Virus record (IMG/VR): IMGVR_UViG_3300048080_000117
Coordinates: 1 to 38,351 of that record
DNA: 38,351 bases
Direction: 5' to 3' (one strand)
Origin: a virus
Shown here: positions 3,161-6,564 of the stretch, piece after piece
Layout of the letters: every line of letters begins with the position of its first letter
Numbering within the stretch: the stretch's first letter is position 1
Made by a program: the position numbers and the translations under genes
The notes under the pieces: generated by a model
Databases searched by the model: none
Told to the model about the DNA's origin: nothing
What the model saw: only the letters and a program-made list of their open reading frames with translations

Positions 3161-3448
3161 GTGAAGTCCCGCTCCCGGAAACACGAGGAAGCCCTTGCTC
3201 GGAAAGAAGCGGCAGCCAAGCGGAGCCCACGGGACCAGATCAACCGGTTGAATGCCAAAGGCTTGCGGGCGGTGAAGGAACGGGCCAAACTCCACTTTAT
3301 GATCCGGACTGCAACCGCGCTCTGTTCTTGGTGTGAGGGGAAGGGCAAGTGTCGTGGGGTAGCGCGTTTCGTGGATGGTGTTTGCGTTATCTGTGGGCGT
3401 CCGTGGCCGAGCTACATGCCTGCGTCCGAGGACATGCGCTTGACGTAA
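3161..3448 (+). CDS. basic protein with a C-terminal Cys cluster (95 aa)
   Basis: GTG immediately after the upstream TAG. Lys/Arg-rich N-terminus, then CSWCEGKGKC...CVICG. Last gene before the terminator. Confidence 0.5.
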   Translation: MKSRSRKHEEALARKEAAAKRSPRDQINRLNAKGLRAVKERAKLHFMIRTATALCSWCEGKGKCRGVARFVDGVCVICGRPWPSYMPASEDMRLT

Positions 3449-3564: not shown

Positions 3565-3861
3565 ATGCCGAAGGGAAACCCGTTTAGGAACAACGCGCCC
3601 CTGATACCGGGAAATCCGGGAAATTCTGGCGGGAAGAAAGGTCGCTCAGGTCGGAAGCCCAAAGGCGTCTTGTCCCGCCGTGGGTTCGTGGAATGGTGTG
3701 AGAGCCTGCTAACGGATGAGACGGTACGGGCGGTTGCGGAAGCCCGGGCCAAGGCTGGTGATACGAAGGTTCTTGAGTTTGCGGCAAAGTATAGTCAGTC
3801 CCTCCCAGCCCAGAAGCACAACGTCGAAACCACACTAATCGTCAAGGCGCAGCGTGAGTAG
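3565..3861 (+). CDS. putative terminase small subunit
   Basis: Lies immediately upstream of, and overlaps, the large terminase. The N-terminal basic GNPGNSGGKKGRSGRKPKG motif is common in small terminases. I chose ATG 3565 over TTG 3535 because 3535 lies inside the terminator T-run. Confidence 0.5.
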   Translation: MPKGNPFRNNAPLIPGNPGNSGGKKGRSGRKPKGVLSRRGFVEWCESLLTDETVRAVAEARAKAGDTKVLEFAAKYSQSLPAQKHNVETTLIVKAQRE

Positions 3862-6232
3862 CGTCACGGTCGAAGTCGCTATCCCCGCGCTGTTAGAGCA
3901 TCAACGGCCTATCGCCCAGCATCCCGCTCGGTTCAAGGTGGTCCGTAAAGGCCGGCGCTGGGGGAAAGACCGGCTGGCGTTCAACGTGTCCTGGTTCGGC
4001 CACGGGCCCCAGTACAGCCACCAAGGCATTGTGGACGGCTGGGACATCGCGTGGTTGGCCCCAGACTATCCGCAGGCGCGGATCATCTGGCAGGAAGAAA
4101 TCGAGCCACGGTTCCGTGGCGTTCCTGGTGTTGAGTTGAACGAGACGGAGCACAGCGTGACCCTGCCGGGTACGGGAGCGTTGCATCTCCGCAGCTCAGA
4201 GAACATGACAAGTATCCGCGGCCTTGGGAAGCGGCTGATTGGCGTCGTGGTGAACGAAGCGGCTCATCTGGATCTCGCCTACGCGTGGCGACAAGTGATC
4301 CGGCCGGCACTGGCGGATAACCGGGGCTGGGCCATGCTGATGTCCACGACCAATTCTGGGACGGACGGGGGCTATGACGAGCAGGGCAACAAGCGGGTGC
4401 CGAGTTACTTCAATACGATCTGCGAGGAAATCCGAGCAGGACAACGTACAGACGAGTGGGCAGAGTTCGAGGGGACGGCGGAGGAGAATCCCAAGATTGC
4501 CAAGGCGGAGTTTGCGGCCCTCGTCGCTGAGTACCCGCAGGACTCCATTGCTCTGCAAGAAGAAATCTACGCCAAACTCCTGACGCCTGGTGCGGGATTG
4601 GCGTTCCCCGAATGGCGGGATGATCTCCATGTCCTGGAACGGTTCGACGTCCCGGCTCACTGGAAATACGGGGCGGGATTCGACTGGGGGTATTGGGAAC
4701 CGTCCGTGTTCGTGCTCTGTGGGTTGGGTGAGGAGAACCAGGTCGTCGTCACGCAGGAACGGAAGTGGGTGCAGAAGGGCGGGTTCGAGATCGGGACGGA
4801 CATCGTGGATCTCTGTCTCAACGCCAAGATCCGACCGGAATGGATCGCGGCCGACGCCTCTATGTGGGGTGTACCAGCGAGTCGTGGGTTCCCCAACCAA
4901 GCTGAGGAGATCCAGTCGGGGATCGTGAAACGGTGGATGGACCGGCAGGGCCAGGGTCCCCCGCCGGTGTTGTTCGGGGTGCCGAAGGGCAAAGATTCAC
5001 GGATCGCCCGAGCTCAGCTTCTCCACAAGTACCTCAAATGGCACGCCGCAGAGGATGGGACGATCTCGCGTAACGGTCAACCGCGGCTCCGGTTCCTTAA
5101 GTCCTGCGGGTACTGCGTGAGTTCGATTCCCCGACTCCCGCCCGATCCCACGAAACCGGAGGACGTGGACACGAAATGTTTCCGGGGGACAGAGACGTTT
5201 CTGACGCCGAGCGGGCCGCGCACCTTCGCGGAAGCGGAAGGGACGAGCGGGCTCGCGTGGACCCGCCACGGCTGGCGTCGGTACCGCTGGTGTCGTAAGC
5301 AGGTATGTTCCTCGGAGGTTGTAGTTGTTAGATTTGACGATGAAACGGAGGTTGTTTGCACCCCCGATCATCACTTCCTAACGACAGATGGCCAATGGAC
5401 TCCCGCAAAGAATTTGACTGGTCACCACGTCAGCGTTGCATCGTCTATGCCGGTGAGAAGTGGTGGGCACGACAAGGCTACTGGAAGAATCGACGCGGGC
5501 AGAACCTTCACCGGCTGGTCTGGTCAGAAGTCCACGGCCCTATCCCACTTGGACACGAGGTCCATCACCGCGACGGTGACGGCTTCAACAATCGGCGCAC
5601 CAACCTCCAATTGGTTACCAAGGCAGAACACCGACGCATACAGCCACGCAACTTCAACCCCGTGGTTGCCCGCGCCTCGTCCCGTGTTCGTGATGTGCCC
5701 AAGTCCTGCGCTCACTGCGGCGCGGACTACGTGGCCCAGCGCCTCTACCGCAACAGTGGCAAGTACTGCTCTCGCCAATGTCGGCAAACAGCAGGGTATA
5801 ATGCCCGCAAGGTTCCAGCCGTCTGCCGGATATGCGGGACGTCGTTCATGCGAAGCACCGCGCCACGGGCCGGTGAGACCTGCGGGTACCGCTGCGGCTG
5901 GGCGTTACGTCGTCAGCGTGAGGCCGCTCAGTAAAACCGAACTCACCTATTGCATCAACGTCCCCGATGTAGGCGAGTTCGTTCTAGCTAACGGACTCGT
6001 CGTAGCAAATTCCGACGACCACGGGTACGACGCACTGACGTACCTCCTGCTGAGCCGGCCCCCGTTGGTCGGGGTGCCGACCGTTGGTCATCCTGACGAG
6101 GACACCCACCCGGGATTCGACTGGCAACGCCGGGAACGCAAGAAGCCGTGGGAAGAAGCTCTGCACCCTCAGGCCGCGGAGAAACTGTCATGGCGTCCAA
6201 GCAAAGACGAGCGCGAAGCGACCGAGTGGTGA
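3854..6232 (+). CDS. terL: terminase large subunit precursor (792 aa; 514 aa after removal of the intein)
   Basis: Walker A-like KGRRWGKD, Walker B-like LIGVVVNEAAH, coupling motif MSTTNSG, nuclease motifs GAGFDWGYWEPSV and DVDTK / SDDHGYDALTYLL. The last motif is split by the intein. Confidence 0.9.
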   Translation: MSSVTVEVAIPALLEHQRPIAQHPARFKVVRKGRRWGKDRLAFNVSWFGHGPQYSHQGIVDGWDIAWLAPDYPQARIIWQEEIEPRFRGVPGVELNETEHSVTLPGTGALHLRSSENMTSIRGLGKRLIGVVVNEAAHLDLAYAWRQVIRPALADNRGWAMLMSTTNSGTDGGYDEQGNKRVPSYFNTICEEIRAGQRTDEWAEFEGTAEENPKIAKAEFAALVAEYPQDSIALQEEIYAKLLTPGAGLAFPEWRDDLHVLERFDVPAHWKYGAGFDWGYWEPSVFVLCGLGEENQVVVTQERKWVQKGGFEIGTDIVDLCLNAKIRPEWIAADASMWGVPASRGFPNQAEEIQSGIVKRWMDRQGQGPPPVLFGVPKGKDSRIARAQLLHKYLKWHAAEDGTISRNGQPRLRFLKSCGYCVSSIPRLPPDPTKPEDVDTKCFRGTETFLTPSGPRTFAEAEGTSGLAWTRHGWRRYRWCRKQVCSSEVVVVRFDDETEVVCTPDHHFLTTDGQWTPAKNLTGHHVSVASSMPVRSGGHDKATGRIDAGRTFTGWSGQKSTALSHLDTRSITATVTASTIGAPTSNWLPRQNTDAYSHATSTPWLPAPRPVFVMCPSPALTAARTTWPSASTATVASTALANVGKQQGIMPARFQPSAGYAGRRSCEAPRHGPVRPAGTAAAGRYVVSVRPLSKTELTYCINVPDVGEFVLANGLVVANSDDHGYDALTYLLLSRPPLVGVPTVGHPDEDTHPGFDWQRRERKKPWEEALHPQAAEKLSWRPSKDEREATEW
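5177..6010 (+). mobile_element. intein (278 codons) in the terminase nuclease domain
   Basis: Starts with Cys (tgt 5177): CFRGTETFLTPSG (block A). TPDHHFLTTDGQWTPAKNL (block B). C-terminal TYCINVPDVGEFVLANGLVVAN followed by Ser +1 (tcc 6011). The exteins join to give a normal DVDTK-SDDHGYDAL motif and a normal-sized TerL. Confidence 0.8.
5356..5934 (+). CDS. HNH homing-type endonuclease, nested inside the intein in a different reading frame
   Basis: NLHRLVWSEVHGPIPLGHEVHHRDGDGFNNRRTNLQLVTKAEH is a classic HNH motif. It is followed by two Cys4 zinc-ribbon-like repeats (CAHCG..CSRQC, CRICG..CGYRC). GGAGG at 5347..5351 precedes TTG 5356. An in-frame ATG lies at 5395. Frame 1, versus frame 2 for terL. 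Confidence 0.8.
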   Translation: MHPRSSLPNDRWPMDSRKEFDWSPRQRCIVYAGEKWWARQGYWKNRRGQNLHRLVWSEVHGPIPLGHEVHHRDGDGFNNRRTNLQLVTKAEHRRIQPRNFNPVVARASSRVRDVPKSCAHCGADYVAQRLYRNSGKYCSRQCRQTAGYNARKVPAVCRICGTSFMRSTAPRAGETCGYRCGWALRRQREAAQ

Positions 6233-6564
6233 AACCAGGCCCTCGGATTGAACCCAACCACTGGCAGGGGATGGCGGATCGGTGGGAAGCCCGGTATGAC
6301 CGACTGCGCCAGCAATACGATGTCTTGGTCAAGCTGGTGGTCGAGTTGCGGCGTGACGGGTTTACGAAGATCCAGGCACCCGAGCTGCCCCAGGCTCCGA
6401 GCCCACTACCTCCGAGGGTTCGACAAGCGATTGAGGACCGGGCTGTTCCGGGTTCACCGATCGAACGGCAACTCGTTGCTCAAGCTCTGGCTGATCTCTC
6501 GGCAGGGAAAGACGAGGAGACAGCGGCCCAGCGGATTCTCGACGGGCTTGAGGTGGCGTGGTGA
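6190..6564 (+). CDS. hypothetical protein (124 aa)
   Basis: ATG 6190 inside ORF 6148..6564, overlapping the terL 3' end. Lies between terminase and portal. Confidence 0.5.
   Translation: MASKQRRARSDRVVKPGPRIEPNHWQGMADRWEARYDRLRQQYDVLVKLVVELRRDGFTKIQAPELPQAPSPLPPRVRQAIEDRAVPGSPIERQLVAQALADLSAGKDEETAAQRILDGLEVAW

Follow-up and report, generated by a model that had tools for sequence, protein, structure and literature searches.

How can a complete endonuclease gene lie inside an intein, in a reading frame of its own, while the gene that carries the intein stays open across it? The question is raised by a 38,351-nucleotide stretch of viral DNA (IMG/VR record IMGVR_UViG_3300048080_000117; "the window" below means this whole stretch), in which an HNH open reading frame (ORF) of 192 codons is enclosed by a putative intein in terL, the gene for the terminase large subunit (TerL). 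The original prediction regarded this as an overprinted arrangement in which the HNH gene, translated as a passenger in the terminase frame, supplies the intein linker. From the comparison of the two frames, and of the same layout in 66 further loci, we consider it likely that the ORF is a homing endonuclease gene with a translation start of its own, overprinted on a linker of the intein that is itself unconstrained.

The HNH ORF, the GGAGG upstream of it, the TTG at 5356 and the in-frame ATG at 5395 were all present where they had been placed (Table 1), and the frame of the ORF (mod 3 = 1) is -1 relative to terL. Its 5' end overlaps block B of the intein and DGQWTPAKNLTGHHV, its 3' end overlaps GRYVVSVRPLSK, and its TAA stop is embedded in the TerL-frame Ser-Lys codons AGT AAA, as had been described. 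The profile check proposed for the 192-residue product gave a match to Pfam HNH_3 (PF13392) with E 1.2e-15 (~57 bits versus a cut-off of 24.8), and 13 HNH PHROGs were matched (PHROG 15471 and 12 more). The closest solved relative was the homing endonuclease I-HmuI (1u3e, profile match with E 0.0095), and the zinc-ribbon blocks gave weak profile matches to FCS/MYM/YacG zinc fingers. Across 56 nested relatives, residues H57, H58, N70 and H79 (numbered from Met 5395) were invariant and H39, D60, N66 and H83 nearly so, and the zinc-ligand cysteines C105, C108, C125 and C129 were nearly invariant in nested relatives. In the window, the ORF has its full length, and none of the invariant catalytic and zinc-binding residues is missing. 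For the HNH frame, AlphaFold2 with an alignment of 61 sequences gave a model with a mean predicted local distance difference test score (pLDDT) of 89.4 and values above 90 over the zinc-ribbon blocks; it combines a sheet at the N terminus, a ββα core and a pair of zinc ribbons. Foldseek found no significant match to this model in the PDB (best E 0.33), likely because it consists of three small, flexibly linked modules. The nested ORF is predicted to encode an HNH_3 His-Me finger endonuclease, in which the two C-terminal Cys4 zinc ribbons are probable DNA-binding modules.

Between the splicing lobes, the TerL frame had been described as filler resembling an off-frame translation, and 66% of its residues were A, T, S, P, G or R. 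A Pfam scan of this in-frame linker was without match, as predicted. Codon-position GC over 5432..5896 was 0.63/0.54/0.70 in the HNH frame and 0.54/0.70/0.63 in the TerL frame, which bears out the earlier impression that third-position GC was higher in the HNH frame; the true genes of the window have 0.65/0.46/0.75, so the HNH frame fits and the TerL frame does not. Compared over the same nucleotides, the window and its closest relative, locus L147, were 52% identical when read in the HNH frame; for the TerL frame, the figure was 29%. The ratio of nonsynonymous to synonymous substitution rates (dN/dS) between the window and locus L148 was 0.18 when computed in the HNH frame and 1.4 in that of TerL. 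Among nested loci, nine close pairs together differed at HNH codon positions 1/2/3 by 36/23/117, and loci L038 and L039 differed by 21 amino acids in the HNH frame and by 65 in the host frame. These results support the view that the HNH frame is under purifying selection and that constraint is relaxed in the linker frame; across the linker, the host frame appears to be constrained only not to stop. The linker was also considered as a real domain, and this was rejected on the missing family match, the wrong codon-position GC and the identities with L147.

The enclosing ORF, 3854..6232, matched the terminase large subunit of PHROG 2 with E 1.4e-17, and a protein search found 122 TerL homologues, most of them of about 500 amino acids. 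At both the protein and the DNA level, intein-less TerLs read DVDTTADDHGYDAL unbroken, and in the window an insertion of 278 residues separates DVDTK from SDDHGYDAL, inside a conserved nuclease motif of TerL. The splicing residues Cys442, T503..H506, Asn719 and the +1 Ser720 are present in the window; among 47 related host ORFs, C442 was invariant and T503, H506 and N719 were nearly so. Pfam matches in these 47 ORFs were Intein_splicing in 39 (at E up to 0.001), Hint_2 in 27, Terminase_6N in 19, Terminase_3 in 12 and N6_N4 methylase in 2, terminases forming the majority, and individual checks added NlpC/P60, class II ribonucleotide reductase (RNR) and ThyA as further hosts. The hidden Markov models (HMMs) of the two lobes, intN and intC, were built from related loci with the window in the training set, so that its own matches to them are circular. 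The insertion is probably an intein capable of splicing. In the window and in L147, the insertion point lies before S-D/E-D-H, six residues upstream of the DAL motif; in most relatives, it lies just before the DAL motif (...HN followed by C-DALRY).

The first TerL protein search returned only three intein-bearing proteins, P0021, P0022 and P0117, which were 24-41% identical to the window protein and all had a junk-like linker; their DNA contained an HNH-like ORF in the same relative frame, decayed in P0021. Owing to the high divergence of the sequences, word-indexed protein searches returned no match for the HNH or for the intein alone, and relatives were obtained by pattern-based locus searches and an exhaustive HMMER search. 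The two closest HNH relatives in the HMMER search were each 53% identical to the window HNH, and one of them, P0121, is on L147. This short contig comes from another sample and carries the same intein allele (SYVVAVRPLKRAEWVYCINVPGVKEFVLASGHVVHN, followed by SEDH...), with the host frame open across the HNH. A search with the HNH alone, in which no open host frame was presupposed, covered IMG/VR, JGI metagenomes and GTDB genomes, and duplicates were removed. The JGI metagenome part contributed at most 80 loci, so that the distinct relatives number at least 105, and the counts given here hold among the loci recovered. Both splicing lobes directly flanked the HNH, with the host in the HNH+1 frame as one continuous ORF, in 66 of the 105. 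The same flanks and frame, with the linker broken by 7-9 stops, were found in two (L027 and L123), and one locus was continuous with the host in the HNH+2 frame (L080). The HNH was in frame with the intein in two (L057 and L061), eight loci were cut by contig ends or partly flanked, and 26 had no intein flank, free-standing genes included. Related contigs had been proposed as the place to look for stops in the terminase frame, and 66 of the 68 directly flanked HNH+1 loci were continuous. Two isolate phages are among the loci with an intein and a nested -1 HNH: Acinetobacter phage vB_AbaM_Highwayman (L143; OZ038341.1 10078-12360) and Rhodobacteraceae phage LS06-2018-MD07 (L144; OP947163.1 20470-22518). 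Both host genes are annotated "terminase large subunit", and the nested HNH is unannotated.

In the same relative frame, the other genes of the window have a stop every ~36 codons, and 0.5% of their 193-codon stretches are stop-free. A stop in the +1 frame requires T at codon position 2, which specifies a hydrophobic residue, followed by a codon starting with A or G. The window HNH has 10-11 dipeptides able to encode a +1-frame stop and ~46 able to encode one in the +2 frame. None of 60 nested copies had a +1-frame stop, and the +2 frame of the same copies had a mean of 7.5; free-standing members had means of 3.4 stops in the +1 and 9.6 in the +2 frame. By resampling, with the protein and codon usage of each copy taken as given, the 60 nested copies have a mean probability of an open frame of 0.19, and the summed log10 P is -56. 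The -1 nesting geometry may thus be favoured by the few stop-prone dipeptides of a polar, basic HNH protein; common descent of the intein-HNH unit is another explanation for the recurrent frame. As a separate observation, the stops that bound the HNH frame are often encoded by intein motifs. The upstream HNH-frame stop is a TGA formed from G/Y-D codons at the end of the N lobe (xxT GAy) in 50 of 68 loci (e.g. L003, L021 and L107), and the terminal stop is a TGA from the Y-D codons of block F in 49 of 68 (e.g. L023, L053 and L143). The junctions of the window are shifted, the HNH frame being open back to 5344, before block B, and the TAA standing six codons before block F.

The start of the HNH had been placed at TTG 5356, behind its GGAGG, with ATG 5395 noted as an in-frame alternative. 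The TTG and GGAGG exist as described, and the conserved start is Met 5395, which is shared with P0122 and L147. Residue 1 of P0122 is aligned with the window Met, and L147 has an HNH-frame stop two codons before its equivalent Met (RSGR-stop-RMDTS...); together, these findings mark ATG 5395 as the conserved start. Nested and free-standing members generally keep a start codon, mostly ATG, upstream of the first conserved strand, and a Met start common to the free-standing homologues agrees with the overprinted arrangement. An example of the start context is MDPIIISDTIQEF... in the free-standing gene of phage PAE1 and MSVSVISDTIQEY... in nested L028. In relatives, the HNH frame usually opens just a few codons before the start codon. 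A Shine-Dalgarno (SD) match of at least 4 nt, located 3-12 nt upstream of the start, was found in 31 of 62 nested copies, with GGAGG or AGGAGG among the matches in L001, L032, L049, L069 and L144. The RNA around the HNH starts was no more stable than shuffled sequences (z = -0.34), and no promoter-like or terminator-like sites were found in 5000..6300. Besides the conserved ATG 5395, TTG 5356 with its SD sequence is also a candidate, and either may be the start used in the window.

On the side of distribution, the 19 closest TerLs, 56-72% identical to that of the window, were all without intein. Two of these 19 were read at the DNA level, and neither L152 (13.5 kb around terL) nor L153 (a 2.8 kb contig) contained an intein lobe or an HNH of the window's family. 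In 54 pairs of loci, the HNHs were more than 45% identical (45-53%) and the exteins barely or not detectably related. Free-standing members were each most like nested ones (37-52% identity) and occurred in several separate lineages; in the Yuaviruses PAE1 and SN1, they stand between terL and portal. The distances of HNH, intein and extein were only weakly correlated in Mantel-type comparisons (rho 0.12-0.23), which do not settle between co-descent and repeated invasion. All 56 nested HNHs scanned matched HNH_3; no match to Endonuclease_7 or LAGLIDADG was found among them, and HNH_3 was the only Pfam HNH family with a match at E up to 1. The element fits a selfish homing element.

The following course is proposed. 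Ribosomes translating terL would read through the HNH gene in its +1 frame and so produce an unconstrained linker of ~155 residues; at this step the frame is continuous and the linker is unconserved. The N and C lobes would then associate, the intein would be spliced out and TerL would be restored, as suggested by the essential role of TerL and the presence of Cys1, TxxH, Asn and the +1 Ser. The HNH protein would be made separately by internal initiation at ATG 5395 or TTG 5356, which we infer because the Met is shared, HNH-frame stops lie closely upstream in relatives, an SD match precedes about half of the starts of relatives and the frame is under strong purifying selection. The nuclease may cut intein-less terL in co-infecting phages, with repair copying the intein and the HNH gene into it; homing is suggested because the distribution is sporadic and similar elements occur in unrelated TerLs. 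The presumed target is intein-less terL around GACGTGGACACGACGGCCGACGACCAC, and the intein-less site in L153 reads ...GAGGACGTGGACACGACGGCCGACGACCACGGCTATGAT.... Stops in the terL frame are purged, since they would be lethal to the phage; 66 of 68 loci are continuous despite a chance of ~19% each for the given protein sequence. Most plausibly, the arrangement arose when a free-standing HNH gene of the same family invaded the loop of a mini-intein.

Several observations weigh against this reading. The Pfam Intein_splicing model (PF14890) matched the window with E 1.5e-4 and 22.1 bits, below the cut-off of 35.8 bits. The penultimate His of the window intein is replaced by Ala (VVAN followed by S), and the block F Asp position is Cys (TYCINV); L147 (548-655) keeps the penultimate His (VVHN followed by S) and has the block F Cys as in the window. 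Both the penultimate His and the block F Asp are dispensable in some natural inteins. With Ala and Cys at these positions, the splicing competence of the window intein is assumed. AlphaFold2 prediction of the intein from its single sequence gave a pLDDT of 33 throughout, splicing lobes included; this model is uninformative, and the linker would be disordered judging from composition and non-conservation alone. No SD match to ATG 5395 was found in the SD scan, and the sole SD sequence of the window, GGAGG, serves TTG 5356 at a short spacing of 4 nt. Synonymous resampling of this HNH protein left the TerL frame open in 22-36% of trials, so that the openness of the window alone is unremarkable and its significance comes from the family-wide pattern. 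The close pair L109/L110 differed at HNH codon positions by 5/5/4, without an excess at the third position, which suggests that some copies may be decaying. For the window as for any related element, expression, splicing and cleavage are predicted from sequence.

Some of these points would also be expected of a decaying relic, in which the HNH was active at invasion and is no longer translated, so that what remains is a mini-intein whose long linker is junk, the HNH ORF persisting only for lack of time to decay. Besides the ATG without an SD match, the atypical block F and G residues and the unbiased pair L109/L110, decayed relatives are known in the family: the HNH of L002/P0021 is truncated, and L020 and L024 have short HNH-frame ORFs. 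Because the window ORF is full length with all its invariant catalytic and zinc-binding residues, has a dN/dS of ~0.18 in the HNH frame and has an SD-preceded TTG available, we regard a relic as improbable. The nuclease might instead be active but made by programmed -1 frameshifting near the end of the N lobe, which would yield an N-extein-IntN-HNH fusion without an internal start. Frameshifting would account for the near-constant -1 frame of the HNH, which holds in 66 of 69 contiguous cases, and in the window the HNH frame is open upstream to 5344, across block B; however, there is no X XXY YYZ heptamer in the window between the last HNH-frame stop and the HNH domain, and a loose heptamer occurs in 19 of 69 loci only, at inconsistent positions. 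Many loci open the HNH frame a few codons before the start, as free-standing homologues do, no stable RNA fold was found at the start (z = -0.34), and the frame bias is explained more simply by the stop-prone dipeptides (11 versus 46) together with common descent. Frameshifting is thus a very improbable source of the HNH protein.

The two frames could also be an assembly or sequencing artefact, if compensating indels near 5430 and near 5897 had displaced an HNH domain that is really in frame. HNH inteins in frame do exist (L057 in RNR and L061 in ThyA), and the exact TerL protein of the window is not on record elsewhere, so there is no second assembly to compare. Nevertheless, 66 further distinct loci, which come from numerous samples and assemblers and include two isolate phage genomes, show the same layout, and the HNH is equipped with a Met start and a stop of its own. 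L147, from an independent sample, has the same intein allele out of frame with the host frame open, and its stop upstream of the Met would break an in-frame fusion; this locus excludes an assembly artefact for practical purposes, and we give this explanation hardly any credence. A different role for an authentic gene, that of a packaging cofactor, had also been suggested: the nested HNH would aid DNA cutting by the terminase in the manner of HK97 gp74, instead of or besides homing. Cooperation of HNH proteins and terminases is established for HK97-like phages (PMC3592412). In favour of such a role, the HNH lies physically inside terL, and members of its family stand free beside terL in PAE1 and SN1. 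A packaging HNH of the gp74 type would be required beside the terminase and kept in phages that share its terminase type; the window HNH is not so kept, as the 19 closest TerLs and loci L152 and L153 (13.5 kb and 2.8 kb of DNA) show. Its HNH_3 type, with an I-HmuI-like core and zinc ribbons, also argues against packaging, as does the nesting of the same HNH family in methylases, NlpC/P60, RNR and ThyA, and the pattern of presence and absence together with the unrelated host TerLs fits a selfish element. The packaging role is therefore disfavoured, and we consider it very unlikely. An overprinted and separately translated homing endonuclease remains the reading that we prefer.

The features of the locus are collected in Table 1. 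The region is divergent phage DNA of ~62% GC, and its genes include, besides the terminase, a portal-sized ORF, tail-fibre matches and a weak major-head match. Upstream of the terminase genes, a small Cys-rich ORF (window 3161-3448) is weakly similar to the HNH zinc-ribbon region (E 0.018), and the ORF at 1129-2184 of the window has a Lar-like restriction-alleviation match (PHROG 599).

Table 1. Features of the terL locus, in window positions.
Feature	Positions	Strand	Basis
TerL precursor ORF, 792 codons plus stop, unbroken across the intein	3854..6232	+	ORF list, start mod 3 = 2
N-extein, TerL residues 1-441, end ...PEDVDTK	3854..5176	+	Alignment with intein-less TerL and DNA-level insertion site
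Intein, 278 residues, Cys1...Asn278 (CFRG...VVAN), +1 Ser at 6011..6013	5177..6010	+	Insertion relative to intein-less alleles
N-terminal splicing lobe, ends ...NLTGHHV	5177..5431	+	Motifs; intN HMM
Block A, CFRGTETF	5177..5200	+	Motif position
Block B, TPDHHF	5360..5377	+	Motif position
Linker in TerL frame, 155 codons, stop-free, read as passenger translation of the HNH gene	5432..5896	+	Composition, GC, identity
C-terminal splicing lobe (GRYVVSV...)	5897..6010	+	Motifs; L147 IntC alignment; intC HMM
Block F, TYCINV (within C lobe)	5945..5962	+	Motif position
Block G, NGLVVAN (within C lobe)		+	Motif position
C-extein (SDDHGYDALTY...) with stop codon	6011..6232	+	Alignment with intein-less TerL
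Maximal HNH ORF, 192 codons, TTG start 5356, TAA 5932..5934	5356..5934	+	ORF list, HNH_3, PHROG 15471
HNH gene from conserved Met, 179 codons	5395..5934	+	Start common to P0121 and P0122
GGAGG, SD-like, 4 nt before TTG 5356 and 43 nt before ATG 5395	5347..5351	+	SD scan
HNH_3 catalytic core (HRLVW...VHHRD...NN...NL...AEH)	5506..5637	+	Pfam, residues 38-81
Cys4 zinc ribbon 1, CAHCG...CSRQC	5707..5781	+	Motifs
Cys4 zinc ribbon 2, CRICG...CGYRC	5824..5895	+	Motifs

Other arrangements were observed within the same family. In L027:1388-3856 and L123:1-2208, an ORF of TerL-N plus IntN ends in a stop and is followed by a free HNH gene and then by an ORF of IntC plus TerL-C. Both loci are AT-rich (GC 0.41 and 0.34), their halves share the +1 frame of the overprinted form, and the ATG of the L027 IntC ORF, at 3602, overlaps the 3' end of the HNH (3612). 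Three N6_N4 methylase loci (L034:1532-4873, L118:1-3048 and L081:1-720) have an HNH_3 of the same family nested in the same relative frame but no complete pair of splicing lobes, L034 and L118 being classed as one flank or partial. The opposite geometry, with the host frame +2 to the HNH, was seen in L080:3-1034, which is continuous, and in L056:504-4184, which is interrupted (GC 0.24). At the in-frame end of the continuum are L057 and L061, the HNH domains of which are more distant. The class II RNR of L057:334-5490 gave two N-lobe matches, two in-frame HNH matches and one C-lobe match, and probably contains two inteins; L061:2023-4125 is a thymidylate synthase with an in-frame HNH intein.

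Terminase genes that apparently have two inteins each were found in L008:385-3513, L011:654-3596 and L024:2-3778; in L024, a LAGLIDADG/Hom_end-type intein stands beside the nested-HNH intein, in which the HNH frame is broken and a 42-codon remnant is left. L148:3440-3936 (metagenome-assembled genome GCA_022563215.1, JADFNT010000170.1) contains an HNH that is 53% identical to that of the window, and upstream of it only the last ~30 codons of an intein N lobe (VVCTPNHRFLSEEGQWIEAKDLTGQHV). Directly beside this HNH, bacterial housekeeping genes (ACT, RodZ and GcpE) occupy the opposite strand, and the contig breaks off within the HNH; L148 is either an ectopic copy that took along a piece of the intein or a chimeric contig.

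Because the bounding stops are encoded in intein motifs, the HNH has its own start, the unit has spread among unrelated terminases and the forms interconvert, -1-frame nesting may be a stable and widespread state, favoured by selection, in which a homing endonuclease gene is packaged, a possibility that we put forward tentatively and with some doubt. If so, the off-frame state would free the dosage of the nuclease from the high expression of the late terL message, and it would keep a folded nuclease out of the splicing precursor. One nuclease family is found here in all states, namely free-standing, overprinted, between split-intein halves and fused in frame, so that the order of steps in the model in which an endonuclease invades a mini-intein becomes testable. 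Gene-calling programs are unable to report an ORF enclosed entirely by a longer one, and none of the nested HNH genes found is annotated. The two cultured phages would allow translation of an overprinted HNH, splicing with a linker of ~150 residues and homing to be measured. The long linkers of natural inteins and the near stop-free +1 frame of polar, basic proteins may also be of use for engineering overlapping genes and inteins.

The earlier remark that no description of this architecture was known has been overtaken, since out-of-frame endonucleases in inteins have been published (10.1101/2025.01.02.630785; 10.64898/2026.09.14.751524). Gosselin et al. (2025) reported endonuclease VII-like (IPR004211) genes out of frame ("frame 3") inside inteins (10.1101/2025.01.02.630785). 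As in the window, the host frame of these elements is uninterrupted and its translation unrecognisable, TerL is among the hosts, and the origin proposed is, as here, that a free-standing homing endonuclease gene invaded an intein. In contrast, the window nuclease is an HNH_3 protein with two zinc ribbons, and its hosts are uncultured, non-actinobacterial phages. Such out-of-frame architectures are called rare in preprints (10.1101/2025.01.02.630785); in the window's HNH family, overprinting was the commonest context (66 of the 105 relatives listed). An out-of-frame LAGLIDADG endonuclease with frame-specific selection was described in the dnaX intein of cyanobacteria by Phillips et al. (2026) (10.64898/2026.09.14.751524), where Gorbalenya (1998) is cited as having first noted it. 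There too, the overlapping ORF is under purifying selection, the linker evolves freely and the arrangement is read as the invasion of a mini-intein, but the nuclease is LAGLIDADG, not HNH, and the host is a cellular replication gene, not a phage terminase. Full-text literature searching found no published description of HNH_3-type genes overprinted in TerL inteins, or of their abundance. The principle is already published for other nuclease families, and the abundance of the HNH_3 form appears unreported. What the present analysis adds is a recurrent single geometry, with stops encoded by intein motifs, and the predicted intermediates within one family.

Outside inteins, Arsenault et al. (2025) described the ShiLan domain, a hidden third-frame HNH with zinc fingers in an insertion of a phage DNA methylase (PMC11855218). 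Like the window, ShiLan has a third-frame HNH in an in-frame insertion that is stop-free in the host frame, with a stop codon at the very end of the insertion. It lacks splicing domains and the insertion stays in the methylase, whereas the passenger of the window lies in an intein and is presumably spliced out. The methylase loci L034, L118 and L081 resemble the hidden HNH of ShiLan and link it to the intein-nested family. In the fractured genes of Dassa et al. (2009), a free-standing endonuclease gene lies between split-intein halves; GIY-YIG and Vsr-like nucleases were found there, and HNH-made fractured genes were merely predicted (PMC2677866). As in the window, the endonuclease gene stands between the lobes of an essential phage gene and its 3' end overlaps IntC, but the host frame of the window is unbroken and its intein contiguous (cis-splicing). 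L027 and L123 represent the fractured arrangement with the HNH family of the window. In the canonical HNH inteins of Dalgaard et al. (1997; cited in 10.1101/2025.01.02.630785), which are in frame, the nuclease is a domain of the intein polypeptide, while in the window it is a separate ORF in another frame. The free-standing genes orf3 of Pseudomonas phage PAE1 and gp64 of Sphaerotilus phage SN1 belong to the same family and have the same domain order as the window HNH. They share the N-terminal start context MDPI.ISDTIQEF... with the nested copies, to which they are at most 52% identical, and differ in their intergenic place between terL and portal, where neither an intein nor overprinting occurs. 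The mechanism proposed for the window matches the model in which a free-standing endonuclease gene enters an intein, as set out in 10.1101/2025.01.02.630785 and PMC2677866.

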